From NCBI GenBank assembly GCA_016839785.1, contig JAEOTQ010000230.1, positions 1 to 37,410 of the forward strand: a stretch of 37,410 nt of DNA, written 5' to 3'. Source of the DNA: Candidatus Hodarchaeota archaeon. Lineage in GTDB: Archaea > Asgardarchaeota > Heimdallarchaeia > Hodarchaeales > Hodarchaeaceae. Of the stretch, positions 6,713 through 30,360 are shown in pieces. Numbering within the stretch: position 1 is the stretch's first letter; the number at the start of each line of letters is the position of its first letter. A model generated the notes under the pieces. It was not told the origin of the DNA, did not search any database, and saw nothing but the letters and a program-made list of their open reading frames with translations. Both the position numbers and the translations under genes were made by a program.

Positions 6713-7501
6713 TTAGATTATAAATTGTTTGATTTCAGTAATTTTTGATTCTACTTCAGTTATTGCTTCAGAGGGGGCTATTTTTGGATTAGAATCAATA
6801 AGTAGGAGTAAACCTTCACCTAAAATATAAACAAAGATATTTGAGACTCCACTCACTGCAAGAAAAAATACTGGTTGTTCTAAATGAGCAGCAAATGCCC
6901 CACGAATTACTCGTACTGCAGCAGGAAGGATTTTTGAATCCATCTGATTTACAATTACCGCTCCTGTGAAAGAGGAAATACACGCACCTTGAATGGCTTC
7001 TTCATTTTTTATCCAATTCACGAGAATTTGATCAACAGATTGTTTCATGGATTCACCCATATATCTACTTTCTCCAGTCATAACTGTCAATATCGCTTCA
7101 TCAAATTCTTTCTTCTCTTTCGAGGTAATTCTGATGGATTTTCTCCCAAATTTATAAGAGAAACTTCCTAGGAACAAAGTCATCAAGGTTCTTAATTTGA
7201 ATTCTATGTCCAGTAATGAAGCAGAAGCTGAAGAAATTAATGAAAACAGACCTTCACCCCGCATTATGCCTGCAATACGCATAGATGCAAAATCCACGTA
7301 AAAAATCTGTCCTGGATCAATCTGCTCTTCTTTAAGTCCTTGAGAAAGGTCAAATGCTGATTGAAGGAGAGAAAAAATCTGTTTAGGTGAAAATTCGTCA
7401 GCAACTTTGGTTGGACGAAAATCCTTAGTAATTAGTGGACGTCCTTTGTCAGTAAAAACAAAAAAACCTAGGAAAATCTCAAGTTCATCAAACGAAACCA
7501 T
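6713..7501 (-). CDS. Longin-domain + roadblock/LC7-domain fusion protein (putative small-GTPase regulator)
   Basis: The N-half has a longin pattern (GFFVFTDKGRPLITKDF...IFSLLQSAFD...FSLIS...IEFKLRTLMTLF). The C-half has a roadblock pattern (VDQILVNW...IQGACISSFTGAVIV...IFVYILGEGLLLLI). It lies 5 bp downstream of the GTPase gene. Confidence 0.7.
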   Translation of the reverse strand: MVSFDELEIFLGFFVFTDKGRPLITKDFRPTKVADEFSPKQIFSLLQSAFDLSQGLKEEQIDPGQIFYVDFASMRIAGIMRGEGLFSLISSASASLLDIEFKLRTLMTLFLGSFSYKFGRKSIRITSKEKKEFDEAILTVMTGESRYMGESMKQSVDQILVNWIKNEEAIQGACISSFTGAVIVNQMDSKILPAAVRVIRGAFAAHLEQPVFFLAVSGVSNIFVYILGEGLLLLIDSNPKIAPSEAITEVESKITEIKQFII

Positions 7502-7506
7502 AACCT

Positions 7507-8046
7507 TTACTCTCCTAAGATCAGCGTACCCATTTGAATGAAAGCATCTTCTACTTTGGATCCTGTTTTAGCAGACGTAGTAATAAATTCCTCTGCTTCG
7601 AGTTTCTCCATTATTTCTTCCTTAGAACCAGGAACTTTTCCTTCAGCAAGATCCTCCTTATTACCAATAACTATGATTTTGGCGTTTGGACTCTGCTCTC
7701 GCACATCATTTCGCCATCGTTCAAGTTTAGTAAATGTTTCTTCAGGTCTAGTCAGGTCAAAAACGAGAAAAACGCCATGAGCCTTTTTTAGATATAAATG
7801 GCGAAAGTTGGTGAAACCACTCTGTCCTGCTACATCCCAGATCTGATAGATTAGCTCTTGTTTCCCTTCATCCATTTCTAATATTACAGTTTTGGACAAG
7901 AAGTCCACTCCGAGGGTAATTTGGTAACCTTCCTCAAAGAAGTTATCCACATAGCGTTTAATCAGGCTAGTCTTTCCTACTTCTGGTTCTCCTACTAGTA
8001 GTAACTTAAAAGCGAATTTACCCGTTTTTCCTTTCTTCTTCGGCAT
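7507..8046 (-). CDS. Rab-like small GTPase (Ras superfamily)
   Basis: G1 GEPEVGKT, G2/RabF1 TLGVDF, G3 WDVAGQ, RabF5-like LVFDLT, G4 NKED, G5 SAKT. No C-terminal Cys. Confidence 0.95.
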   Translation of the reverse strand: MPKKKGKTGKFAFKLLLVGEPEVGKTSLIKRYVDNFFEEGYQITLGVDFLSKTVILEMDEGKQELIYQIWDVAGQSGFTNFRHLYLKKAHGVFLVFDLTRPEETFTKLERWRNDVREQSPNAKIIVIGNKEDLAEGKVPGSKEEIMEKLEAEEFITTSAKTGSKVEDAFIQMGTLILGE

Positions 8047-8223
8047 GATACTGACTCCTCGTAATGGTTGGGTTACAGACTTGTGTTCTTTTTAATGATC
8101 TTTTCTGAAAAGTATTTTCTTAAAAGGATTCGCCAATTTCAACGATTTATAACGAATTAGGTTAATATTATATTAATACATAATTATATGGACTCAGCAA
8201 TAATTTAAGATTCGTGAAGTCCT

Positions 8224-10818
8224 ATGCCTGAGAAATGTCAAATCAGCTTCAATTTACAAGCAGAAGGGAAAGCTAAAGTTGAGTCCTTCCGTTTCAATGT
8301 CAATTCACTTACTGATCCTTCAGTTGAATTTCCGAGTTTTCCAAAAGAAAAGATGTTACGGGCTTTAAGGGAACATAGTCATAGCAAACAATATGGATTC
8401 GCACATGGCCACCTTAAGAACTTAAAATTTAAGAAATGCGATGCTCTTAGTGATGAAGAAGAAATTCATATCTTAATGTTAGTATTTGAAAAAATTGGTC
8501 CAATCTCTCTACTTTTTCACAATAAGTTTGAATATTTGGTATTAGAAGGAATCGATGCCCAGTATAACTACATTGGATACAAAACACTCGTTAATCTTCT
8601 CATTCAGGTAATTAAACCAGATACGGTACCTATTCAAGGACTAGGGAAGATAAAAGCCATTTATCATGCCTCTAATACTCAGGAATTAAAACGAAAGGCT
8701 TCATACGTTCCAATCCTTGATACAACCGAAGGAAAAATTACCCTATTCGCATTAAGTATTATTTTACCGACAATAGCGGTGATTGTTCTCCCCATAAGTT
8801 GGCTAGAAGAAGTGGAAACATATCTTTTTGCTCTAGGCTTACTCTCGATCTCAGTTTGTATATATCCCATAGCTAAGCGATCTTTTCGTCATTCTCCCCT
8901 AGCGTTACTATCTTTAATTGCTTCTTATTTAATTGTAGAAACACTGATACATTTTGACATCTTAATAGCGGGATTAAATCCTTGGGGGATATTCAATAAT
9001 ATTTCACGACATAATTTAGTAGGAATTTTGCGAAATCAACCAATTGTGAGCTCAATTGGTCCTCAACTCTTCATGGGATTTGATCTACTTGGTGCAATTG
9101 TCCCATTCCTAGATATTATCCTGTTAGGTATTATTCCATTTACCATTGGCGCTGGTTTATCGGGATTGCTGGAAAAGGTTGAAAAAAAGCTATCAATACG
9201 CACGATTACAGTTAAATCATTATTTGCTGCATTATTTTTAATTTCGATTATAGCCATACCAACCACTTATCATGCAATTGGAAAAGGCATGGAAGGGACA
9301 TTATATGCAAGTATTGGAGTTACAGACACTGCAGAAATATTTTCTGAGAAATTTTTCACTAATCTAGAAGACAATATCAATGATTTATGGGTATTAATCT
9401 ACTCTGCTCAATTCAATTTTGATAAAGCGGGAAATTCATTTCAGCAGTTTGCTGAAAATCCTCTTATTGCATATCTATTACCGTTTATCATACCTGAAGT
9501 TGCTGGAATCCCACTGAAGGATTTACCAAAGATTTTAGATCTAACAGAAGTTGTTTCTGAATCGTTGGCATATGTTCCTAATATCCTTTGGTCATTAACA
9601 CATTTAGAATCAGGTATAAATCTAACATTCTCAATTCTCCAAGATACCATTGGACAATCACTCATAGGTGGTTATGGCTCATCACTTACTGCGACTTATG
9701 ATCCTTCAATGCGTGCCGCTCTTAATCTCCTATTACAGGGTACAAACAATCTATCAGAAATTGAATCTCCTCTTCTAAGTTTATTCTCCCAAGCAAGGGA
9801 TAAATTAGGATATTCAGTGTTTGCAGAAATCTCTTCAGTTTTAACAGAATTAGAGTTCGTACTTCCAATATTAATTACGATTTTAAATGGATTGACTCCT
9901 TGGGTAAATAGTACATACAAATTAACACTTGTGATAGATGATTTATTTGATTTTGAATTCAATAGCGAGTATTTAGCAAGTGCTGTAGATGATTTTGATC
10001 AATCAGCTTCAATTCTTGATATTGATGTTGATACTTTGCCAAACACATCAATTATACCTATTCGGGACCTAGCAGATTTCAGTCTAAATCTTCATTCCGT
10101 TACAAAGTATTTTCTCTATACTATCCAAAATGGAACACAGATGTTTCAGCAGCTTAACAATACTTTAAAACTCTTTCAAAATGTAACTTTTTCCAATGCT
10201 TCGAATATTGATGATCCTATTTGGCAAGAAATCAATCTTGGATTGACTAACACTGAAAATTACTTGAAAGCAACGCAGGATAGCTTAACCGAGATGGGGA
10301 ATATTGTCTCCTCTCAAAGTGAATTGGACTTTGAAGTGTTAAATTCATTCTTAGGAGAACTACAAACCTTCATCGATGAAACAACAGCTGAATTCGATGT
10401 CGTGGAGGAGTATTTTGATGCACTCGCAGGGACATACGATGCCAGTTCCGCATTTTCTCTCGGTATAAAAGTGCTAAATGAAACCATAATGCAAGATCTT
10501 GTCTCCCCACCTACAACAGACTATACTGCTGCTAAAGGTAACTTTACTCAAAGCCAAATTTATGCTAATCAGACCTTTGATATCTTGGCCAATGTACCCA
10601 CCCACCTTTTGAATCAGAGTGCTATTACTAATTGGCAAAACTTAGTAAAAGGTGATATCCAAGATAATACTTCCAATTCAATATATGTCAATTCTGCCAA
10701 TTGTTTGAGCTTAATTGATGCAATTGAATTTGTTGGGTCTGCTAATCCAACCGACTTATTGAATTTCGAGATGATATTAATTCCCGCAGATACGATGGGC
10801 TGGAACATCTTTTCTTGA
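8224..10818 (+). CDS. Large hypothetical membrane protein: soluble N-domain, ~5-6 TM helices and a long amphipathic helical C-terminal region
   Basis: 864-aa ORF with hydrophobic segments at aa ~170-350. The Asn/Ser/Thr-rich acidic tail has many N-x-S/T sequons. Confidence 0.75.
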   Translation: MPEKCQISFNLQAEGKAKVESFRFNVNSLTDPSVEFPSFPKEKMLRALREHSHSKQYGFAHGHLKNLKFKKCDALSDEEEIHILMLVFEKIGPISLLFHNKFEYLVLEGIDAQYNYIGYKTLVNLLIQVIKPDTVPIQGLGKIKAIYHASNTQELKRKASYVPILDTTEGKITLFALSIILPTIAVIVLPISWLEEVETYLFALGLLSISVCIYPIAKRSFRHSPLALLSLIASYLIVETLIHFDILIAGLNPWGIFNNISRHNLVGILRNQPIVSSIGPQLFMGFDLLGAIVPFLDIILLGIIPFTIGAGLSGLLEKVEKKLSIRTITVKSLFAALFLISIIAIPTTYHAIGKGMEGTLYASIGVTDTAEIFSEKFFTNLEDNINDLWVLIYSAQFNFDKAGNSFQQFAENPLIAYLLPFIIPEVAGIPLKDLPKILDLTEVVSESLAYVPNILWSLTHLESGINLTFSILQDTIGQSLIGGYGSSLTATYDPSMRAALNLLLQGTNNLSEIESPLLSLFSQARDKLGYSVFAEISSVLTELEFVLPILITILNGLTPWVNSTYKLTLVIDDLFDFEFNSEYLASAVDDFDQSASILDIDVDTLPNTSIIPIRDLADFSLNLHSVTKYFLYTIQNGTQMFQQLNNTLKLFQNVTFSNASNIDDPIWQEINLGLTNTENYLKATQDSLTEMGNIVSSQSELDFEVLNSFLGELQTFIDETTAEFDVVEEYFDALAGTYDASSAFSLGIKVLNETIMQDLVSPPTTDYTAAKGNFTQSQIYANQTFDILANVPTHLLNQSAITNWQNLVKGDIQDNTSNSIYVNSANCLSLIDAIEFVGSANPTDLLNFEMILIPADTMGWNIFS

Positions 10819-13339: not shown

Positions 13340-13358
13340 AACCCCCCTTTTTTCTTTT
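13340..13358. terminator. Probable terminator between convergent genes
   Basis: aaccccccttttttctttt oligo-T run between the convergent stop codons. Confidence 0.4.
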
Positions 13359-14449
13359 TAAAATCCATCAATCCAATCCATAAATCGAGACGAAACTTGT
13401 TGAAAGAGTAATTCACGAATCAAAGGATTTCTCTTTGCTGAAAGATCCACTGCTACTTCAATAAGGGCTTCGTCGTGCTTATCACGAACATCCACAATCA
13501 TTTTCTCCCGTTCTTCTTCAGGATAAGTAAATACATCGATCAAAAGGTTTGCCACCTCTAAAATTTGAGTATATGCTAGAGTAAGTATATTTTCAGCCCG
13601 ATTTGGTTCTTTTTTAACCTGTTTAAGAATTTCTTTTGAATAATTACACGTCTGTCCATTTTTTACCTGCTTTTTATTACTATCAATTAGAAGCTCTTGG
13701 GGATAACGTTTCACAAGATTTTTTGCTAAACCTATAATATCTGCTTGTTTTGGGTCAAGAACATCCTCTGTATAGCTTATTTTCCGAAGAATAACCTGAG
13801 GAAGGAGAAGATCTACACTGTGGACTATAAGATCTATCATTACCTGTGATTCTCCCGTTACGAGAACTGGATTACCTCGGTAAATCGCACCTAGTATCTT
13901 GTCCTCATTCTTTTTTATTTGAGAAAACAAGAAATCGAGATTGCCTCCCTCTGTTCTTTCTGAATAAGTTACCCGCTTTTCAATAATCTGTACCTGTGTT
14001 GTTGTATCTGTATCAGTCACTTCCCAAGCGTCTAGTGTCTGTTGTAACTCCTTAGGGAATGTTGAACCTTTTTCGAATGTATACTGTTGTTTAATCTTCA
14101 AAGAAATGTCATCTGCAGTGTGTTTCAGGAAAGGTACCTTGGAATATAAAAATGCCTGCTGCTCATGAGAAACAAGATAAATAAGAGCCGCTACGCAATG
14201 AGGATTAGCAGGATCCTGTTGGTTGATTTGGAATAAATAGATAAATCCAATTCGCTTTTTTGCAAGACCAGGAAAAGGTAATATAGCCTCAGTATTATCC
14301 AATTCTGAACTAGTCATCATTGAGAGTGGCATTGTAGATTTTAATGCGACTTGTGAGGCTTCAGAATCTGACAGGTTATGTTTTGTATAAAAAATAGGCA
14401 AAGCTTGCTTTTGGGTGGTAAAAACACAAAAGAGAACATCTCTATTCAC
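13358..14449 (-). CDS. DENN-like protein (uDENN/longin + cDENN + helical dDENN-like)
   Basis: Longin-like N-terminus (VLFCVFTTQKQALP...AILPFP...IGFIYLF...AALIYLV). cDENN-like core ILGAIYRGNPVLVTGES...VHSVDLLLP...DIIGL...LLID. Helical C-terminus. Confidence 0.65.
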   Translation of the reverse strand: MNRDVLFCVFTTQKQALPIFYTKHNLSDSEASQVALKSTMPLSMMTSSELDNTEAILPFPGLAKKRIGFIYLFQINQQDPANPHCVAALIYLVSHEQQAFLYSKVPFLKHTADDISLKIKQQYTFEKGSTFPKELQQTLDAWEVTDTDTTTQVQIIEKRVTYSERTEGGNLDFLFSQIKKNEDKILGAIYRGNPVLVTGESQVMIDLIVHSVDLLLPQVILRKISYTEDVLDPKQADIIGLAKNLVKRYPQELLIDSNKKQVKNGQTCNYSKEILKQVKKEPNRAENILTLAYTQILEVANLLIDVFTYPEEEREKMIVDVRDKHDEALIEVAVDLSAKRNPLIRELLFQQVSSRFMDWIDGF

Positions 14450-15689: not shown

Positions 15690-16496
15690 TTATCTTTTCA
15701 GAAATAAGTTAATATACTGTTTCACCTTTGGATCTGTGACTTCATCACCAAAGAGGCGCATAACATGGGACATTTTACTACTAAAATTCTCAAACGATAG
15801 ATTTTTTTCTTCACATAAAGCAACTACCATGTTATAAAGTACTGGATTTGTTCTCAAGAGTTGAGATAGCAGATAGAATGTGATTTTGTCATCATTTGTC
15901 CGTTTTTGCAGAAATTTCAGTATCTGCTTCTCTGATCGCAGATACCGAGACGAATTGATTAACTGAAATATGATAGGATAATATTCCTCAGATTTCATTT
16001 TCTGCCAATCACGAATTTCATGAATTCCCCGAATAGTCTCTTGGTAGTGTTTCTCCATAGCAAGGTTCGCAAATCCAATTTTCTCCCAAGATTCAAGTTT
16101 GGCAACTAATGACTGATATTCTTCATGAGTTTCTATGTTAGCTTCAATCGATCGAATACTATACTCTAGTAAACCCAGGATAAACCCAGGAGAATATGAT
16201 TCTAAGCTAGAACCAAGAGTCGGGGCAGATATTACTTCTTCCTGGATATTTTTCAGAAATTGTCTATTTTTTTCTAAGGTTGAACTTTCAATACTGTCCT
16301 CTAAAGAATCCAAGGCCCAGTATATGAATAGAGCTTTTTCCGAATGTTTTGATTCTGTTATGAAGGGTCGCAATTCTTCTTGTTCTTTTAGAAGTTGTTT
16401 GATCTCTGAAAAAACGATTGGTTGAGCCAAATGCAATTCCTCAATATTTCTTATTTTCAGACATGTTAAATGTCGCTCAAAAATGTTGACATTCAA
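15690..16496 (-). CDS. Hypothetical all-helical protein
   Basis: 268-aa ORF with a TTG start, co-oriented downstream of the HEAT-MHD gene. No family recognised. Confidence 0.7.
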   Translation of the reverse strand: MNVNIFERHLTCLKIRNIEELHLAQPIVFSEIKQLLKEQEELRPFITESKHSEKALFIYWALDSLEDSIESSTLEKNRQFLKNIQEEVISAPTLGSSLESYSPGFILGLLEYSIRSIEANIETHEEYQSLVAKLESWEKIGFANLAMEKHYQETIRGIHEIRDWQKMKSEEYYPIIFQLINSSRYLRSEKQILKFLQKRTNDDKITFYLLSQLLRTNPVLYNMVVALCEEKNLSFENFSSKMSHVMRLFGDEVTDPKVKQYINLFLKR

Positions 16497-16565: not shown

Positions 16566-18785
16566 TTATCCAACAAGCATTCTATAAACTTCAGCGGGAT
16601 CGTGTTCTCCAGGTGCCCTGATTTTAAATCGGATTTCGACTTTCTGCTCTGGTTGAACTTCCTCGAAAATCCACTTCATGGCCTGACCATTGTTCACTGA
16701 AGAGTGTTCTTCAAAACCAACTTCAGGATCCTCATGAGTTTCACCTACCAATTCAAACCCATTGGGCAAAAAGTCTGTTATTTCGACATTTTGTATGACA
16801 GCTGTTCCATCGTTAACACCACGAAGAACCACTTCATACTCATTAGTTTCTTCTGAAGAGGTTGAAGATACCATTTTACCAATTTTCAATTTGCGTCGCT
16901 CATGTACAACAGTTATTGGACCAGCTTCGGCTTCAGCAGAAATTGGTTTTACTTCAGGATAGATATTACCTAAGACTGTAACAGTTCCAGTAAATTCTTC
17001 TTCAGGTTTTGCAGTGGCATATAGAGGATATTTTACAAGAATTTCTTCATCTTGTGCAAGTGGCCCGAACTCTGAATCTTCTAAGTGTTCCATAGTAATT
17101 ACTACATTGCTGCCAGAGAGATCAAAGTCGAAGTCCTCAAGTTGTTCACTTGCTTTAAGAATCTCTATCTGCTCTCGCTCAGGACCTTCAAATCCTTCAG
17201 GAATTGCTTCAGATAACTGTATATACATGATCTCTGTACTACCAATCGATTTAACGACTTGTTCGGAGACAACTTCTGTCCTTCTAAATGAAGGGATAAC
17301 GAGGGGTTCATAGGTCTTAGTCACTTCTATACCCATGAAGGGTAATGCATACCCAGATAATACACATTCTGCAACAACTTCAGCATCAAAAAGGTATTTA
17401 ACACTTAAATCAAGTTCTCTACCGAACTGAGGAATCATATTATCATCCTCAACGGTAATAGTCCAGGGGTCTAGCGAGAATGTTTCACCAGGATCAATAG
17501 ATCGCTCTTCTTCGGGAAAATCAGTGCCTAACCACTCAATACGAACATTTCCTTCGTCGAGGGGTCCTTCAAAGATTTTTACTTCTTTTAAATCCATTTC
17601 AAATTCGCTGGTATTCTCAAGCTCAAACAAACAATCAAAATCACCAGGATTTTCTTCTTGTTCTTCACGTGAGATAAACTGAAAGACTGATGAACTACCA
17701 GTTATCGTATCTAAGCCTAAGCCAGAAAGACTCTTCTCTTTGACTTTGTATGTGATTTTCGTATCACCAATAATATAGGGATCGTTACCTTCTTCTGGTA
17801 AAGTGACTTTCATTACACAGCTTGCTTCTACTGTGTCACCCGCTTCAATTTCTTCAATTTCCCAAAGGACATGACTTCCTTCATCATCTGAGCTCTGCTT
17901 TAAGCTCCCAATGCTAGCCTCAAAGCCTTCAACAGTAGTTGAATCATCTAAAATGTATTTTTTAACTACTACATCATTCAAAGCATCATCAAATTCGTTA
18001 GTCAGCTTTATGGTGAATTTCATGCCAGATTCTTCACCTCTAGCGAATAATGGAGGTGAATCTTCTTTTTCTAAATCCCAAAAATCTTCTTGCACTGATA
18101 ATTTGGGTGCTTCAACTTGATACTCAAACGGGACGTATTTGGATGATTTCGGGTCTAATTCTTTTAAGGCAAATGAATTACCGAATACGGCTGTACCCTG
18201 TGCTTCATCTGCATTGAATATAACTTCATCTACGCCTTCTAATACCGCATCAATAGCCCAAATTCTATCTTTACTACCAGTGTTAACAATCTCAAGCTTT
18301 CCAGTCCCAACAAGGCCGCTAATTTCTTCGCCTTCTTCATCGACTAGATTATTATCTCTGTCAATCCGATATTGAAGAGATTCTTGAATTTTAACGTATA
18401 AGCCAGCTTGTCCTTTTTCAGATTCTTCCAACGCTCGATAGTCATCAGCAGCTCTTTCTTCATCTTCTTCTGAGAATTCACTTTCACCTAAAGGTCTTCC
18501 AAATTGCTGAATCCTATTGGCACCGTCTTTAGCCTTATTACGAGCTCCACGATCTTTATCATCTCGTTGAATTCTCTGTAGTACAGAGACTGCTTCAGGA
18601 TCGTTTAAAACTACAATTGAATCGATAGCGGATTTACGTACGTCTTTGTCCTGATCTTTCAGGGCAAAATCACATAATATGTGCAATGAACTCTTATTTC
18701 GTTGTTTTTCAAGAGTTTTTATTGCACTCATTTTTTGCTCTTTGCTGATATTTCTATACTCGTCATATGACAATTTTACAGTCAC
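16566..18785 (-). CDS. HEAT-repeat + mu-homology-like domain + tandem Ig/DUF11-like beta-sandwich protein
   Basis: HEAT repeats at aa ~15-95 (DQDKDVRKSAIDSI, DDKDRGARNKA). MHD-like region at aa ~129-365. DUF11-like repeats follow (EVTKTY...EAIPEGF; IGKMV...NDGTAVIQNVEITDFLPNGFEL). Very acidic, with no signal peptide. Confidence 0.65.
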   Translation of the reverse strand: MTVKLSYDEYRNISKEQKMSAIKTLEKQRNKSSLHILCDFALKDQDKDVRKSAIDSIVVLNDPEAVSVLQRIQRDDKDRGARNKAKDGANRIQQFGRPLGESEFSEEDEERAADDYRALEESEKGQAGLYVKIQESLQYRIDRDNNLVDEEGEEISGLVGTGKLEIVNTGSKDRIWAIDAVLEGVDEVIFNADEAQGTAVFGNSFALKELDPKSSKYVPFEYQVEAPKLSVQEDFWDLEKEDSPPLFARGEESGMKFTIKLTNEFDDALNDVVVKKYILDDSTTVEGFEASIGSLKQSSDDEGSHVLWEIEEIEAGDTVEASCVMKVTLPEEGNDPYIIGDTKITYKVKEKSLSGLGLDTITGSSSVFQFISREEQEENPGDFDCLFELENTSEFEMDLKEVKIFEGPLDEGNVRIEWLGTDFPEEERSIDPGETFSLDPWTITVEDDNMIPQFGRELDLSVKYLFDAEVVAECVLSGYALPFMGIEVTKTYEPLVIPSFRRTEVVSEQVVKSIGSTEIMYIQLSEAIPEGFEGPEREQIEILKASEQLEDFDFDLSGSNVVITMEHLEDSEFGPLAQDEEILVKYPLYATAKPEEEFTGTVTVLGNIYPEVKPISAEAEAGPITVVHERRKLKIGKMVSSTSSEETNEYEVVLRGVNDGTAVIQNVEITDFLPNGFELVGETHEDPEVGFEEHSSVNNGQAMKWIFEEVQPEQKVEIRFKIRAPGEHDPAEVYRMLVG

Positions 18786-19060: not shown

Positions 19061-20467
19061 TTAACTATTACCAGTGAATTTTTTTATGAATGCAGTGAAA
19101 CGCGATTCTGACATTCGTAACACCTTTCTTAGACTTTCTGGTTCTTCAAAACTAATGAGATCATTTAGAGTGAAAATATTGAGGACATTAAGTTTTTCTA
19201 CTGTCTTTAACCCTATTCCTGGGAGTGTTAATAGTTCACTTGGAGATTCAACAACAATTGGAACTTCAGAATCTTCAGTTAATGGTACTCCCACATAATG
19301 TGAGGCATTTCGCATCCATTTCTGATAGGTTTTTTCTGTAGTGATGTTACTCAACATTTCAAAAGATGAATTTAGGAGATTATCTACGGTTATGATTCCC
19401 ACCGATTTCAATTTTTCTGTAGTTACCTTTCCTATACCTTTGATTACAATCACTGGTTGATCAAGTGGTTTTACAAGTTCGGGTTTTCGAACACTTTCAG
19501 GTTCAATTATTCGACCTATGGATGCTAATATTTCCCCTAACTCATTCGTAGAAATATCAAGACTCTTCTTCAAGAGTTCTATATCGGAAAAATCAAGCAA
19601 TTCCGTTTTTGATCTTACTCCTAAATTTGCTAAGTGCTTGATGTAATTAGTAGTAAGTCCTTTGACCATCCTTAAATCGTCAGGAACAATTTCCTCATCA
19701 GGTTCTATGTCTAATCTACCAATTTCTTCAGCTTTCTCACTTAGTAAAAGCTCCGCATCTTGGAGCATTTTCTCCAGTCTCTTATCGCTAATTCGCATAA
19801 TTTCAGCCAGGTAGATACGATCTTTGTGATACCACAGATCTGAAACTGTCATAACATTGACTTTAGCCAAGCGACTTGCATATGTCTGTCCAATTCCCCG
19901 GACTTCTGTGATAGGTATTTCCTTCTCTAAACCAGCTGTAGGAGGAGATGATTCTGCTATTTCTTCCTGAACCATAAGAATGGCATCAATAGGTTCATCT
20001 TCTCTTAGAATTTCTTCTTCAATTATTGGTACGAGTTCTGGGAGTTGATAAATTATATCTCCACCAAGTAAAGGAAATTCCACTCTTTCTGATTTCTCTA
20101 CAAAAAAAATTTGGCTGAATGCTAAAAGTTTTCCATCTTCTTCAACTAATTTTTGTGTACCTCTCACGTTCTTAATACTATTTACCTTTACTTGCCATAT
20201 CCCGAGATGGTCATCCCGTATAGATGTTGGGATTGGCCAGTTGTTTACTAATATATCACTTAGACCTTTTCCATATCTGTTCAAACGTGAGTTCTGCTTA
20301 TGATCAAGAATTTGTAGACGATAGCGCCCTGGTATCAACTCACTTTCAAATGCAACGTGAATATTAATTCTTTCACCTGGTTTAAACGCAAAAACACTTA
20401 GAATCGGATCATTGGCTAAGCAGATACAAATTGAGGGCATTTCATACACATTTCTAGGACTATGCAC
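19061..20467 (-). CDS. MG2-like Ig domain + four helix-hairpin-helix (HHH_5/DUF4332-like) modules
   Basis: HhH motifs VRGIGQTYASRL, VKGLTTNYIKHL, IKGIGKVTTEKL and LPGIGLKTVEKL. The N-domain reads FKPGERINI...LQILD...WPIP...LGIWQV. The true start may be the ATG at 20440. Confidence 0.8.
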   Translation of the reverse strand: MHSPRNVYEMPSICICLANDPILSVFAFKPGERINIHVAFESELIPGRYRLQILDHKQNSRLNRYGKGLSDILVNNWPIPTSIRDDHLGIWQVKVNSIKNVRGTQKLVEEDGKLLAFSQIFFVEKSERVEFPLLGGDIIYQLPELVPIIEEEILREDEPIDAILMVQEEIAESSPPTAGLEKEIPITEVRGIGQTYASRLAKVNVMTVSDLWYHKDRIYLAEIMRISDKRLEKMLQDAELLLSEKAEEIGRLDIEPDEEIVPDDLRMVKGLTTNYIKHLANLGVRSKTELLDFSDIELLKKSLDISTNELGEILASIGRIIEPESVRKPELVKPLDQPVIVIKGIGKVTTEKLKSVGIITVDNLLNSSFEMLSNITTEKTYQKWMRNASHYVGVPLTEDSEVPIVVESPSELLTLPGIGLKTVEKLNVLNIFTLNDLISFEEPESLRKVLRMSESRFTAFIKKFTGNS

Positions 20468-20502: not shown

Positions 20503-20826
20503 CTATTCACCAGTAAAGAACTTCACTTGATTCTTAACCTCGAAGAATAATTGGAATTTTTCGCTTTCTGACTCGATATAAATCTGCCACAGCCCAAAAT
20601 GTCGATCTTTCAACAATTTAGGAATTGGCCATTGGAGTTCGATTCCTTTTTCTGAACCTTTCCCGTATCTATTAAGTCTAGTATTTTCTTTACGATCTAG
20701 GATTTGTAACCAGTATTTATCAGGAATATGTGAGAATTTTGCTTTAAATGAAAACTTTTGACCTGGCAAATATGTATAAAGTGCTTGATCTGTATCATTC
20801 GCGGATTTAAGAGAGAATTCCTTCAT
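20503..20826 (-). CDS. Stand-alone MG2-like beta-sandwich protein, paralog of the N-domain of the downstream gene
   Basis: YLPGQKFSF...LQILDRKENTRLNRYGKG...WPIP...HFGLWQI aligns with the neighbouring protein. Confidence 0.75.
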   Translation of the reverse strand: MKEFSLKSANDTDQALYTYLPGQKFSFKAKFSHIPDKYWLQILDRKENTRLNRYGKGSEKGIELQWPIPKLLKDRHFGLWQIYIESESEKFQLFFEVKNQVKFFTGE

Positions 20827-27056: not shown

Positions 27057-27596
27057 GTGGATACAGAAATGGCTAAGTACTGCCCATCATGTGGACATAA
27101 AACAGAACCAGATTCAATTTATTGTCTAAATTGTGGAAAAAAACTACCTGAAAAAACTTTTGCGGAACCTGGAGCTAGATGGGAGGCTCCCACTCAACCT
27201 TCCAAGCCTGTACCATATCAAAGTCCAGACTATAAAACAGTTTATCAACCACGACTATTTCATCCAAGTATGAAAGCACCACTTGGAGAACGAATTATTG
27301 CAGCTCTAATTGATTCCGCTATAGCAAGTGTACTTAGCTATGTTTGTATAGGAGTTTTTTATGGCTGTTTCCAAGATGGAATTCGGGATGGCCAATCATT
27401 CGGAAAAGGAATCCTGAATCTTAGAGTTGTCGATTATATCTCTGGCACACCTGCAACCTTAGGTCAATCTTGTGTACGTAACTGTATATGTGGGTGGGTA
27501 GATGCCATGTGTTGCTATTTAACTGTTTTTATATCTGATGAGGGACGTCGTATAGGAGATCAAGTAGCGGGAACCGTTGTAATTCGTGATCAATAA
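27057..27596 (+). CDS. Zinc-ribbon + RDD family protein
   Basis: YCPSCG...YCLNCG and a Pro-rich linker. RDD motifs RIIAALID, GQSFGK...LRVV and RRIGDQVAGTVV. The start may be the ATG at 27069. Confidence 0.88.
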   Translation: MDTEMAKYCPSCGHKTEPDSIYCLNCGKKLPEKTFAEPGARWEAPTQPSKPVPYQSPDYKTVYQPRLFHPSMKAPLGERIIAALIDSAIASVLSYVCIGVFYGCFQDGIRDGQSFGKGILNLRVVDYISGTPATLGQSCVRNCICGWVDAMCCYLTVFISDEGRRIGDQVAGTVVIRDQ

Positions 27597-27741: not shown

Positions 27742-29247
27742 ATGAAGGATATTTTCCAAAAGATCACGGAACTTGAGCGCTTAGGTGAATTCGGAAAGAT
27801 AATTGGGCTTGTAGAAGAGGAGCTTAAAAACGAATCAAACCAAGAAAGAAATTTTCAACTTGAATTAGTTCAGTTAGAAGCGAATTATAACCTAAGGAAT
27901 TTCCAACATGCAAAACAAAGTGTAGAGAAGCTAATAAGGCAACCTATGTTGGAGAAATATCCTGCAATACTGGGTGGAGCTCATAACCTATTGGGAAAGA
28001 TATTTAGAATTCATCAACGATATGAAGAAGCTCTAAAACATTATCAAATTGCAGAAAATGCCTATAAAGCAGCTCGAGATAACCCAGGTCTTACTAAAAT
28101 TAATATTAACATTGGTAATGTCTACATTTTTCTAGAAAAGTTTAAATTTGCTAAAAAATTCCATAAAAAAGCATTAGACCTGGCAATGTCAGATGAAAAT
28201 TCTGAATTAATCGCAAATTGTTATTTGAATCTTGGAAGCTTGCATTATCAGAACGGTGAAGTTGAAGATGCATTTAATTATTATAAAGAAGCATTAAAAA
28301 TCTTTGAAGACATTAATGATATCCCAGCACTAGCTGCAGTTCACCTAAACATTGCAGAAACATTTTTTCTTCGGAAGAATTTTATTGAATCTGCTAAATA
28401 CAGTGCTACTTCAATTGAATTGTACAAACGACAGCAAAATACTTTGGGTCAAAATTTAGCTCTCAAATCTTTTGCAAGAGCTGAAAGGGGTGCAAGAAAT
28501 TATGAGAATGCTATAAAATCATTTGAGGAATTACTTAAACTACAAGATTCCTCATTAAATGAAGAGATTTTATTAGAACTGGGAGAATGTTATCTTGAGT
28601 TAAATGATGCATTTAGTGCTGAAGGTATATATCAGACCTTACGTAATACGCCGAGTTATTCCCCTCAGTCAAGAGGACAGGCATTGAATTATCTAGCAAC
28701 CATATCAGGTGGAAAACGTAATTTTAACCTCTCCATCAAGTACTATACGGAGTTAATGGAGATCCTGAAATCGCTACCCGTTGATGATGTGGATAGTAGA
28801 GCATCAACTCAAGGAAATCTTGGGTACATGCATCTAAAGCTTGAAGATGAGGAAAAAGCATTCAAGAATCTGGATACTGCATTAAAGCATTTTCGCAAGA
28901 AAAAGATTTGGGAAGATGCTGCTATCCTACTAAATAATTTTTTGGGTGAATTTTTCATTAAAAAGAAATATTTCAAATGTGTATCTTTTATTGAGAAGTT
29001 CGCACTTCCTATTGCCAAAAAAGCAAAGAATAATGATTGGCAAACGCAACTCCATTCCGATATCGCTTTCATTACTCATCTTACTGGAAAATCGGATGAG
29101 GGAGTTCGCTACTGGAAGAAATTTTGTCCTCAAGATTCATTATCTCAATACAAACCTTTTTTCGTTTCTCTCACTGATATCCCCGAATCAGAAAGGGAAC
29201 GATTAGATGGAGAGCTCAGAGACTTCCTCAAACTGATTTCAGAGTAG
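27742..29247 (+). CDS. Tetratricopeptide repeat protein
   Basis: Repeated TPR consensus (LLGKIF...EEALKHY; NIGNVY...AKKFHKKAL; NLGSLHYQNGEVEDAFNYYKEAL). Confidence 0.92.
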   Translation: MKDIFQKITELERLGEFGKIIGLVEEELKNESNQERNFQLELVQLEANYNLRNFQHAKQSVEKLIRQPMLEKYPAILGGAHNLLGKIFRIHQRYEEALKHYQIAENAYKAARDNPGLTKININIGNVYIFLEKFKFAKKFHKKALDLAMSDENSELIANCYLNLGSLHYQNGEVEDAFNYYKEALKIFEDINDIPALAAVHLNIAETFFLRKNFIESAKYSATSIELYKRQQNTLGQNLALKSFARAERGARNYENAIKSFEELLKLQDSSLNEEILLELGECYLELNDAFSAEGIYQTLRNTPSYSPQSRGQALNYLATISGGKRNFNLSIKYYTELMEILKSLPVDDVDSRASTQGNLGYMHLKLEDEEKAFKNLDTALKHFRKKKIWEDAAILLNNFLGEFFIKKKYFKCVSFIEKFALPIAKKAKNNDWQTQLHSDIAFITHLTGKSDEGVRYWKKFCPQDSLSQYKPFFVSLTDIPESERERLDGELRDFLKLISE

Positions 29248-30003: not shown

Positions 30004-30360
30004 TTGAGATATATTTTATCTCAATTATCTATGGAGAATTATGGAATGTCAAGTCAACAAGCATTATTAAGAAAAACAGCTCCATGTATGGATCGATGTA
30101 TAGCTTCGATAATTGACGGCTTCTTATCTTGTATACCATGTTATCCTCTCTGGAAGGATGGTATTCGAGATGGTCAGAGCTTTGGCAAAGGTATGATGGG
30201 TCTCCGAGTGGTAAAGTTTTCCACAGGTCGGCCTGCTACCATAACAGATTCTTGTCTTAGAAACTGTTTCTCATGTTGTGAACCCCTACTCTTAATAACC
30301 AGTGGTCGAAGACGCTTCGGCGATTATGTAGCTGGTACAATTGTCATTAAAGACGCCTAG
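30004..30360 (+). CDS. Minimal Cys-rich RDD family protein, paralog of 27057..27596
   Basis: RCIASIID, DGIRDGQSFGK...LRVV and RRFGDYVAGTIVI. The true start may be the ATG at 30031 or 30046. Confidence 0.82.
   Translation: MRYILSQLSMENYGMSSQQALLRKTAPCMDRCIASIIDGFLSCIPCYPLWKDGIRDGQSFGKGMMGLRVVKFSTGRPATITDSCLRNCFSCCEPLLLITSGRRRFGDYVAGTIVIKDA

Follow-up and report, generated by a model that had tools for sequence, protein, structure and literature searches.

A HEAT-headed protein of Hodarchaeales as a probable member of a pan-Asgard family with a predicted mu-homology fold

The mu-homology domain (MHD) reads sorting signals in clathrin adaptors, COPI and related coats, and to our knowledge the origin of this domain has not been established. 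In muniscins (FCHo/Syp1/SGIP1) and stonins a long disordered linker connects it with a head that is not a longin, and in the mu subunit of AP-2 (mu2), whose lobe A is completed by C-terminal strands at about 394-435, the pocket that accepts YxxPhi signals is formed by F174, D176, K203, W421 and R423. Repeat proteins of the DUF11 / TIGR01451 type, which also have to be considered here, are usually found at the cell surface, in bacteria as well as in archaea. The protein discussed below is encoded at 16566..18785 on the minus strand of a 37,410-nucleotide stretch of Candidatus Hodarchaeota archaeon (GenBank assembly GCA_016839785.1, contig JAEOTQ010000230.1, positions 1 to 37,410; hereafter the window), and it had been read from the letters alone, in what we call the original prediction, as a one-chain proto-adaptor in which HEAT repeats, an MHD and appendage-like beta-sandwiches would share a single polypeptide. 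We regard it as fairly probable that the protein instead represents the HEAT-headed branch of a pan-Asgard family of proteins of ~700-780 amino acids (aa), in which an MHD-fold unit is followed by three further modules, D3, D4 and D5. Such a family would touch on existing surveys: in the accessible part of Eme et al. 2023 (PMC10307638), the Pfam domain of the mu C-terminus is reported in Asgard archaea with a sparse distribution, and Asgard homologues of all AP/COPI domains, also sparse, are described as 'not fused to each other'.

The open reading frame (ORF) comprises 739 aa and a stop codon, starts with GTG and is the longest frame possible at 16566..18785, so that no N-terminal extension is hidden upstream. 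It is real and conserved, and encodes a soluble, strongly acidic Asgard protein of the Hodarchaeales type. At the N-terminus stands a head of ~2.5 PBS-lyase-type HEAT repeats (aa 1-100, 18486..18785, all features of the protein being on the minus strand), recognised by Pfam HEAT_2, by helices in the AlphaFold2 (AF2) model and by matches to alphaRep proteins in the PDB. It is followed by an acidic linker (aa 101-128, 18402..18485), probably disordered to judge from its isoelectric point (pI) and its low predicted local distance difference test score (pLDDT). The body opens with the MHD-like unit, in which AF2 and Foldseek delimit a lobe A of eight predicted strands (aa 129-248, 18042..18401), and Pfam and hhalign a lobe B that forms a DUF11-type sandwich homologous to D4 and D5 (aa 249-356, 17718..18041). 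A junction with the motif GSSSVFQ[FY]I (aa 357-395, 17601..17717) overlaps the start of D3 (aa 366-500, 17286..17690), the most conserved module, defined by conservation and AF2; D4 (aa 501-630, 16896..17285), a DUF11-type beta-sandwich, is recognised by profile-profile comparison only, together with AF2, and D5 (aa 631-739, 16569..16895) is a DUF11 domain by Pfam, TIGR01451 and AF2 that ends in a short C-terminal helix (730-738). No description of this MHD-D3-D4-D5 architecture, or of a link between DUF11 and the MHD, was found in the literature.

Structure prediction provides the strongest argument for the MHD-like unit. A domain-only AF2 model of aa 125-368, computed from an alignment of the sequences of the window and of 20 genomic loci (21 sequences), reached a pLDDT of 83.9 and a predicted template modelling score (pTM) of 0.76. 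When this model was compared with the PDB by Foldseek, all 43 rows listed to rank 50 belonged to AP-1, AP-2, AP-4 or COPI, the matched chains being MHDs of mu or delta subunits (inferred in the case of 5nzu chain D), with E-values of 1.3e-8 to 1.6e-6, query-normalised template modelling (TM) scores of 0.55-0.68 over 241-274 alignment columns and identities of 10-16%; no pilin, adhesin or CARDB tandem occurs among these 43 rows. TM scores that high over 244 residues imply that both lobes must superpose simultaneously, and the predicted model of aa 125-368 indeed displays the two-lobe geometry of an MHD, so that the likeness to the MHDs of the AP-1/2/4 mu subunits and delta-COP extends, by prediction, to the whole two-lobed all-beta fold (~245 columns). 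MHD matches recur with the full-length model (target-normalised TM 0.67 for 5wrk_A and 0.59 for 4o8q_B). The top matches of that full-length search, namely integrin legs, PrgB and antigen I/II, were rejected on their root-mean-square deviations of 16-45 Å and TM scores of 0.13-0.29, and are read as strings of unrelated Ig-like matches. A mu-homology fold of aa 129 to ~365, as originally proposed, is thus supported at the level of modelled structure.

Sequence comparison points in the same direction once the family is sampled broadly. With a profile built from 48 diverse family members, the 17 best distinct PDB sequences were AP-2 mu2 (E 0.0025-0.012), followed by the MHDs of delta-COP and mu1 (E 0.39-0.53). 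The MHD-pattern blocks quoted in the original prediction are all present in the translation, in the order given there, and HMMER aligns blocks of the wide-family profile, in order, to AP-2 mu2 residues 300-403, with SLSGLGL falling on mu2 398-403, so that the likeness in block order to mu2 covers lobe B and the first return strand; the last 23-27 positions of the Pfam profile have no match. Of 31 orthologues, 19 match the adaptor family PF00928 (Adap_comp_sub) at E ≤ 0.01, the best with 9.3e-8; of 77 wider relatives, 39 do so at E ≤ 0.001, and 11 of the 77 score above the Pfam cutoff. Six of the 77 are covered by PF00928 across both lobes (from positions 6-18 to 184-236), two of them above the cutoff. 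The junction holds the near-invariant motif GSSSVFQ[FY]I, which is present in 51 of the 220 core family members defined below, and is a possible equivalent of the mu2 strands that return to lobe A. Across the orthologues, the MHD unit shows 57% mean identity and 14% invariant columns.

A number of observations weigh against this assignment. The target itself scores 22.7 bits against PF00928 (E 6.9e-5), below the curated cutoff of 31.6, and the match joins aa 249-360 to profile positions 121-232 of 259, that is, to lobe B only; when lobe B is scanned alone, DUF11 (21 bits) and Adap_comp_sub (18.8 bits) compete for identical residues, and lobe A alone has no Pfam match. Profiles built from orthologues only retrieve no MHD from the PDB sequences, the full-length profile giving alphaRep/HEAT matches only and the profile of aa 125-368 none at all. 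A search of 1.84 billion proteins with the profile of the MHD unit returned 106 matches at E ≤ 0.001 that include no canonical eukaryotic mu subunit, and longin (PF01217) is absent both from the target at E ≤ 1 and, at E ≤ 0.001, from the 87 of these 106 matches that were scanned with Pfam. The language-model neighbourhood of aa 125-395 consists entirely of DUF11 clusters, none of them named as an adaptor. The fold evidence consists of predictions from shallow alignments (21 and 31 sequences). PF00928 also scores 42.2 bits on P0115, an adhesin-like protein of seven DUF11 repeats, at positions 129-200 only, and since this is above the PF00928 cutoff, PF00928 matches confined to lobe B are not specific. 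Moreover, P0097, a protein of 4745 aa with Big_13/SBBP domains and a signal-like N-terminus, contains two full matches to the MHD-region profile, which means that the MHD-like unit is not confined to cytosolic proteins.

Parts of the body are related to DUF11 proteins. AF2 places strands at aa 366-500, 501-630 and 631-723, in line with the three or so further sandwiches expected from the original prediction. Of these modules D5 alone reaches the Pfam DUF11 family (PF01345; 41 bits for the whole protein and 27.9 for D5 alone, cutoff 24.6), D4 having no Pfam match. Fragments of TIGR01451 are the sole NCBIfam matches in the target and six relatives, and the NCBI name 'COG1470 family protein' is not accounted for by the NCBIfam scan. 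Comparison of the modules with hhalign, on the wide-family alignment, links lobe B with D5 (97.9%), lobe B with D4 (94.5%) and D4 with D5 (97.1%), while lobe A and D3 remain at or below 15% against the DUF11-type modules; by these profile comparisons lobe B, D4 and D5 are mutually homologous DUF11-type repeats, from which lobe A and D3 are distinct. D3 has the highest conservation (81% mean identity and 37% invariant columns among orthologues) and the lowest AF2 confidence of the protein (pLDDT <50 at aa 391-430 and 450-458), and it has no relative in Pfam, in the PDB sequences or by hhalign, the Atlas yielding only DUF11-like leads below 0.9. None of the appendage families PF02883, PF02296 and PF09066 matches D3, D4 or D5 in Pfam at E ≤ 10, and no alpha/beta platform subdomain is present in the AF2 model. 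A gamma-ear match (1gyv_A, E 0.067 with the wide profile) was dropped, being absent when the C-terminal profile (aa 366-739) was used; that profile gives no significant match among PDB sequences, the best being a fimbrial subunit (E 0.32).

The protein could accordingly be regarded as an ordinary multi-sandwich protein of the DUF11/CARDB type, for example an envelope-associated or adhesive component exported without a classical signal, whose likeness to the MHD would combine the generic sandwich of lobe B with a chance arrangement of domains in the model. This explanation draws on the DUF11 matches in D5 and lobe B, on the homology of lobe B with D4 and D5, on the cross-reaction of PF00928 with a classical DUF11 adhesin, on the Atlas neighbours (all DUF11 clusters, 26 of 30 matches in one set), on the giant proteins that match lobe B repeatedly, most of which contain hydrophobic segments resembling signals or anchors, and on the TIGR01451 name that two sources give to the close homologues. 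It has more difficulty with the PDB structure matches, since all 43 of those listed are MHDs that align along the entire 244 residues, at TM scores of up to 0.68, with the coverage of lobe A by PF00928 in six of 77 relatives, including two that exceed the cutoff, and with lobe A itself, which is not a DUF11 repeat. Furthermore, the lack of a hydrophobic N-terminus in 217 of 220 core members and the cytoplasmic character of the HEAT, TPR and NACHT heads and fusions fit poorly with export. The same comparison separates the target from DUF11 proteins in general: D5 is alike, lobe B and D4 are homologous and the Atlas neighbours are DUF11 clusters, whereas the target has no signal or anchor by hydropathy, its heads are of cytoplasmic type, lobe A and D3 are not DUF11, and the A+B pair matches the MHD, with no tandem Ig structure among the listed matches. 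The outcome that was originally named as refuting the MHD assignment, ordinary DUF11 repeats without MHD topology, is therefore found in part, in that lobe B is DUF11-like but the two-lobe arrangement is MHD-like. Taken as a whole, we consider the DUF11/CARDB explanation unlikely, though it deserves serious attention, and return to the reading as a family with an MHD-fold unit.

The extent of this family was established by several searches. Close homologues number 53 (557-750 aa, 46-99% identity), most of the named cases being Hodarchaeales, Hodarchaeota or Heimdallarchaeota; five of the 53 have a precomputed PF00928 call, and two sources label the close homologues 'uncharacterized repeat protein (TIGR01451 family)'. 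The 20 genomic loci belong to named metagenome-assembled genomes of Hodarchaeota/Heimdallarchaeota type. A search with members lacking the HEAT head added 117 further relatives, almost all 700-780 aa long; the taxa in their names are Loki-, Thor-, Heimdall-, Hermod- and Promethearchaeota, apart from two odd labels, Bathyarchaeia and Zixibacteria; about 43 of the 117 (counted by eye) have a precomputed PF00928 call. When a core member is defined through per-module hidden Markov models as a protein with the MHD unit and at least two of D3, D4 and D5, 220 of the 276 collected proteins qualify, with a median pI of 4.49. The order MHD-D3-D4-D5 is fixed in the body, and the head is variable: a short HEAT domain, an unrelated domain of ~80 aa, or none. 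An acidic linker stands after each of the listed heads. The originally described architecture is thus widespread across Asgard archaea as far as the body is concerned (220 core members), but its HEAT head is present in only 56 of them and absent from 164. Rare fusions place the MHD-like unit before TPR repeats (P0105) or before a NACHT NTPase (P0121). The Asgard PF00928 proteins of Eme et al. 2023 (PMC10307638), so far as the accessible part of that study describes them, are probably members of this family, which at the domain level has probably already been counted among the Asgard 'adaptor mu' matches; and as the HEAT head lies outside the five AP domains, its presence here does not conflict with the statement 'not fused' in that part of the study. 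The A+B unit may be older than the Asgard archaea, as suggested by the double match in P0097 and by the fact that some of the DUF11-cluster Atlas neighbours of aa 125-395 come from Thermoplasmatota.

The head is a short HEAT domain of the PBS-lyase/alphaRep type, ~90 aa long with ~2.5 repeats, and by sequence comparison no adaptin trunk. HEAT_2 (PF13646) matches aa 18-85 with 33.4 bits in the whole protein (cutoff 27.7) and with 38.2 bits when aa 1-100 are scanned alone, it is found in 31 of 31 orthologues scanned, and the full-length AF2 model has five helices within aa 15-95. The best PDB sequence matches are designed alphaRep HEAT proteins, both in a single-sequence phmmer search and with the orthologue profile, which reaches alphaRep chains at E-values down to 8.7e-30. 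At E ≤ 10 the Pfam matches of aa 1-100 are HEAT_2, HEAT and HEAT_PBS only, with no Adaptin_N (PF01602). The head thus resembles PBS-lyase HEAT-like and alphaRep proteins (PF13646, PF03130) at 33-38 bits and differs from them in having only ~2.5 repeats joined to a beta-rich body, and it is unrelated to the adaptin trunk of ~600 aa. Its conservation among orthologues is 47% mean identity with 8% invariant columns. In the linker, aa 96-128 contain 12 D+E against 4 K+R (pI 4.08), and AF2 confidence falls below 50 at aa 102-105 and 114-125. The HEAT repeats and the acidic linker had both been recognised correctly in the original prediction, as had the lack of a signal peptide and a transmembrane helix.

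For the latter, a crude hydropathy screen gave a highest 19-residue Kyte-Doolittle mean of 1.48, at aa 470 and within a predicted beta strand, and the N-terminus is polar. By hydropathy 217 of the 220 core members have no hydrophobic N-terminus, the exceptions being P0020, P0103 and P0132, and 25 further core members show a marginal internal window of 1.61-1.89, which in 23 cases lies at aa 444-470, homologous to the predicted D3 beta strand, and in P0146 and P0148 at other internal positions. From the 217 of 220 members without a hydrophobic N-terminus and from the fusions to HEAT, TPR and NACHT domains we infer that the protein is probably cytosolic, as had been proposed. It is also the most acidic protein of the window: its pI is 4.32 and its D+E content 21.7%, where the medians for 36 ORFs are 6.67 and 12.2%. 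The MHD region has a pI of 4.19 and no basic patch; the sole basic cluster of the protein, HERRKLKIGK (aa 628-637), begins in the D4 part and straddles the D4/D5 boundary, and the pattern of this cluster recurs in 100 of the 220 core members. A comparison with the YxxPhi pocket of mu2 is limited to F174 and D176, because K203, W421 and R423 are not mappable onto the target. In the weak alignment of strand beta-1 (1.4 bits), F174 corresponds to Y130, a position occupied by Y, K, H or N among 21 orthologues, and D176 to K132, where 20 of the 21 have K or R; E179 corresponds to the invariant E135. Neither F174 nor D176 thus has a conserved equivalent, the protein is acidic and the MHD has no basic patch. 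It is therefore unlikely that the protein binds YxxPhi signals in the canonical way or lipids through a basic patch like that of mu2, and the cargo-binding role originally assigned to the domain is not supported.

The view that the protein is a proto-adaptor, in which a solenoid resembling a trunk, an MHD that binds cargo and sandwiches resembling appendages would sort membrane cargo into buds or vesicles, can appeal to the MHD-like fold, to the Asgard origin of the window, in which a small GTPase of the Ras family and further domains of trafficking type are encoded, to the sparse Asgard homologues of all AP/COPI domains reported in the accessible part of Eme et al. 2023 (PMC10307638) and to the non-significant gamma-ear match, yet it is very improbable in the face of a PBS-lyase-type head of ~90 aa that shows no Adaptin_N and is missing from 164 of 220 core members, of sandwiches that match no appendage or platform family at E ≤ 10 and of which D4 and D5 are DUF11-type, of a gamma-ear lead that was not reproduced, of the lack of a detectable longin, of pocket positions F174 and D176 that are not conserved and of the highest acidity in the window, with no basic patch in the MHD region and no membrane-binding element found. 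With no adaptin trunk, longin, appendage or platform domain, the protein is not a single-chain adaptor complex, and neither the trunk-like nor the appendage-like part of the original prediction is retained. The AP mu subunits and delta-COP, for their part, differ from the target in that they have an N-terminal longin, whereas the target has none and belongs to no detectable heterotetramer, and in that the target domain is strongly acidic and carries three more sandwiches behind it.

The most likely mechanism would be that of a cytosolic interaction scaffold. A conserved partner would be bound by the conserved body, chiefly by D3, which is near-invariant, and by the MHD-like unit; partners specific to each lineage would be recruited through the variable head, mounted on its flexible linker. 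This layout parallels eukaryotic head-linker-MHD proteins such as the muniscins. The muniscins and stonins share with the target the sequence of head, flexible linker and MHD, and the Pfam family muHD (PF10291) matches one of the 31 orthologues (E 0.0015); the muniscins differ in having an F-BAR head and a C-terminal MHD, where the target has a HEAT head and three sandwiches after the MHD.

The surrounding window is a typical stretch of Asgard chromosome, with genes for a Ras-family GTPase, eIF-1A, an MFS transporter, GH57 and others. Upstream of the target lies a gene for a protein with helix-hairpin-helix (HhH) repeats (19061..20467, minus strand; Pfam HHH_5 and related families), which is found upstream in 17 of 20 loci, the remaining three having less than 510 bases of upstream flank, and downstream lies a gene for a 268-aa protein (15690..16496, minus strand) with no match in Pfam or among PDB sequences, found in this position in 15 of 20 loci. 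The recurrent gene order is MFS, 107-aa ORF, HhH protein, target, 268-aa ORF and deoxyribosyltransferase-like; an operon-style functional link with the HhH and 268-aa proteins was not adopted, as this is synteny among fairly close genomes. The 107-aa ORF (20503-20826, minus strand) is paralogous to the first ~90 aa of the HhH protein (40% identity, E 1e-23), and in the more distant loci tblastn places the 107-aa ORF and HhH queries on one and the same stretch, which suggests that the separate small copy arose by a duplication confined to the closest genomes.

Other genes of the window deserve mention. A 363-aa protein (13358-14449, minus strand), conserved at the corresponding place in 11 of 20 related loci, has a weak Pfam match to Folliculin_C (DENN-like; E 0.049, aa 189-245) and no PDB sequence match, and is a possible GTPase regulator of the longin/DENN type. 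The small GTPase of the Ras/Roc family (7507-8046, minus strand; 130 bits) is flanked by a 262-aa ORF and by an acidic ORF of 864 aa with a pI of 4.57 (6713-10818 for the group), both without a Pfam match. A TPR protein (27742-29247, plus strand) with an additional Pfam match to SNAP (soluble NSF attachment protein; E 2e-7) is flanked by ORFs of the RDD family at 27057-27596 and 30004-30360.

What emerges is a conserved Asgard family whose predicted MHD fold is embedded in an otherwise very different protein and has one lobe of the DUF11 type. For annotation this calls for caution, in that archaeal Pfam matches to 'adaptor mu' are not evidence for adaptor complexes and the cross-reaction between PF00928 and DUF11 can yield false 'adaptor mu subunit' annotations in prokaryotes. 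The family is a tractable target for structure determination and for pull-downs in cultured Asgard archaea. Common descent of its MHD-like unit with the eukaryotic MHD is probable but not proven, and the family is a concrete candidate for the ancestor of that domain. We put forward tentatively, and with more doubt than confidence, that it represents a pre-eukaryotic form of the MHD, the domain having arisen in archaea from a unique lobe A sandwich and a DUF11-type lobe B within a cytosolic multi-sandwich scaffold, later to be excised and, in the course of eukaryogenesis, coupled to longin or F-BAR heads. If so, the module with which AP complexes, COPI, TSET, muniscins and stonins recognise their motifs would derive from such an archaeal protein, and the archaeal proteins may already read partner motifs at membranes.

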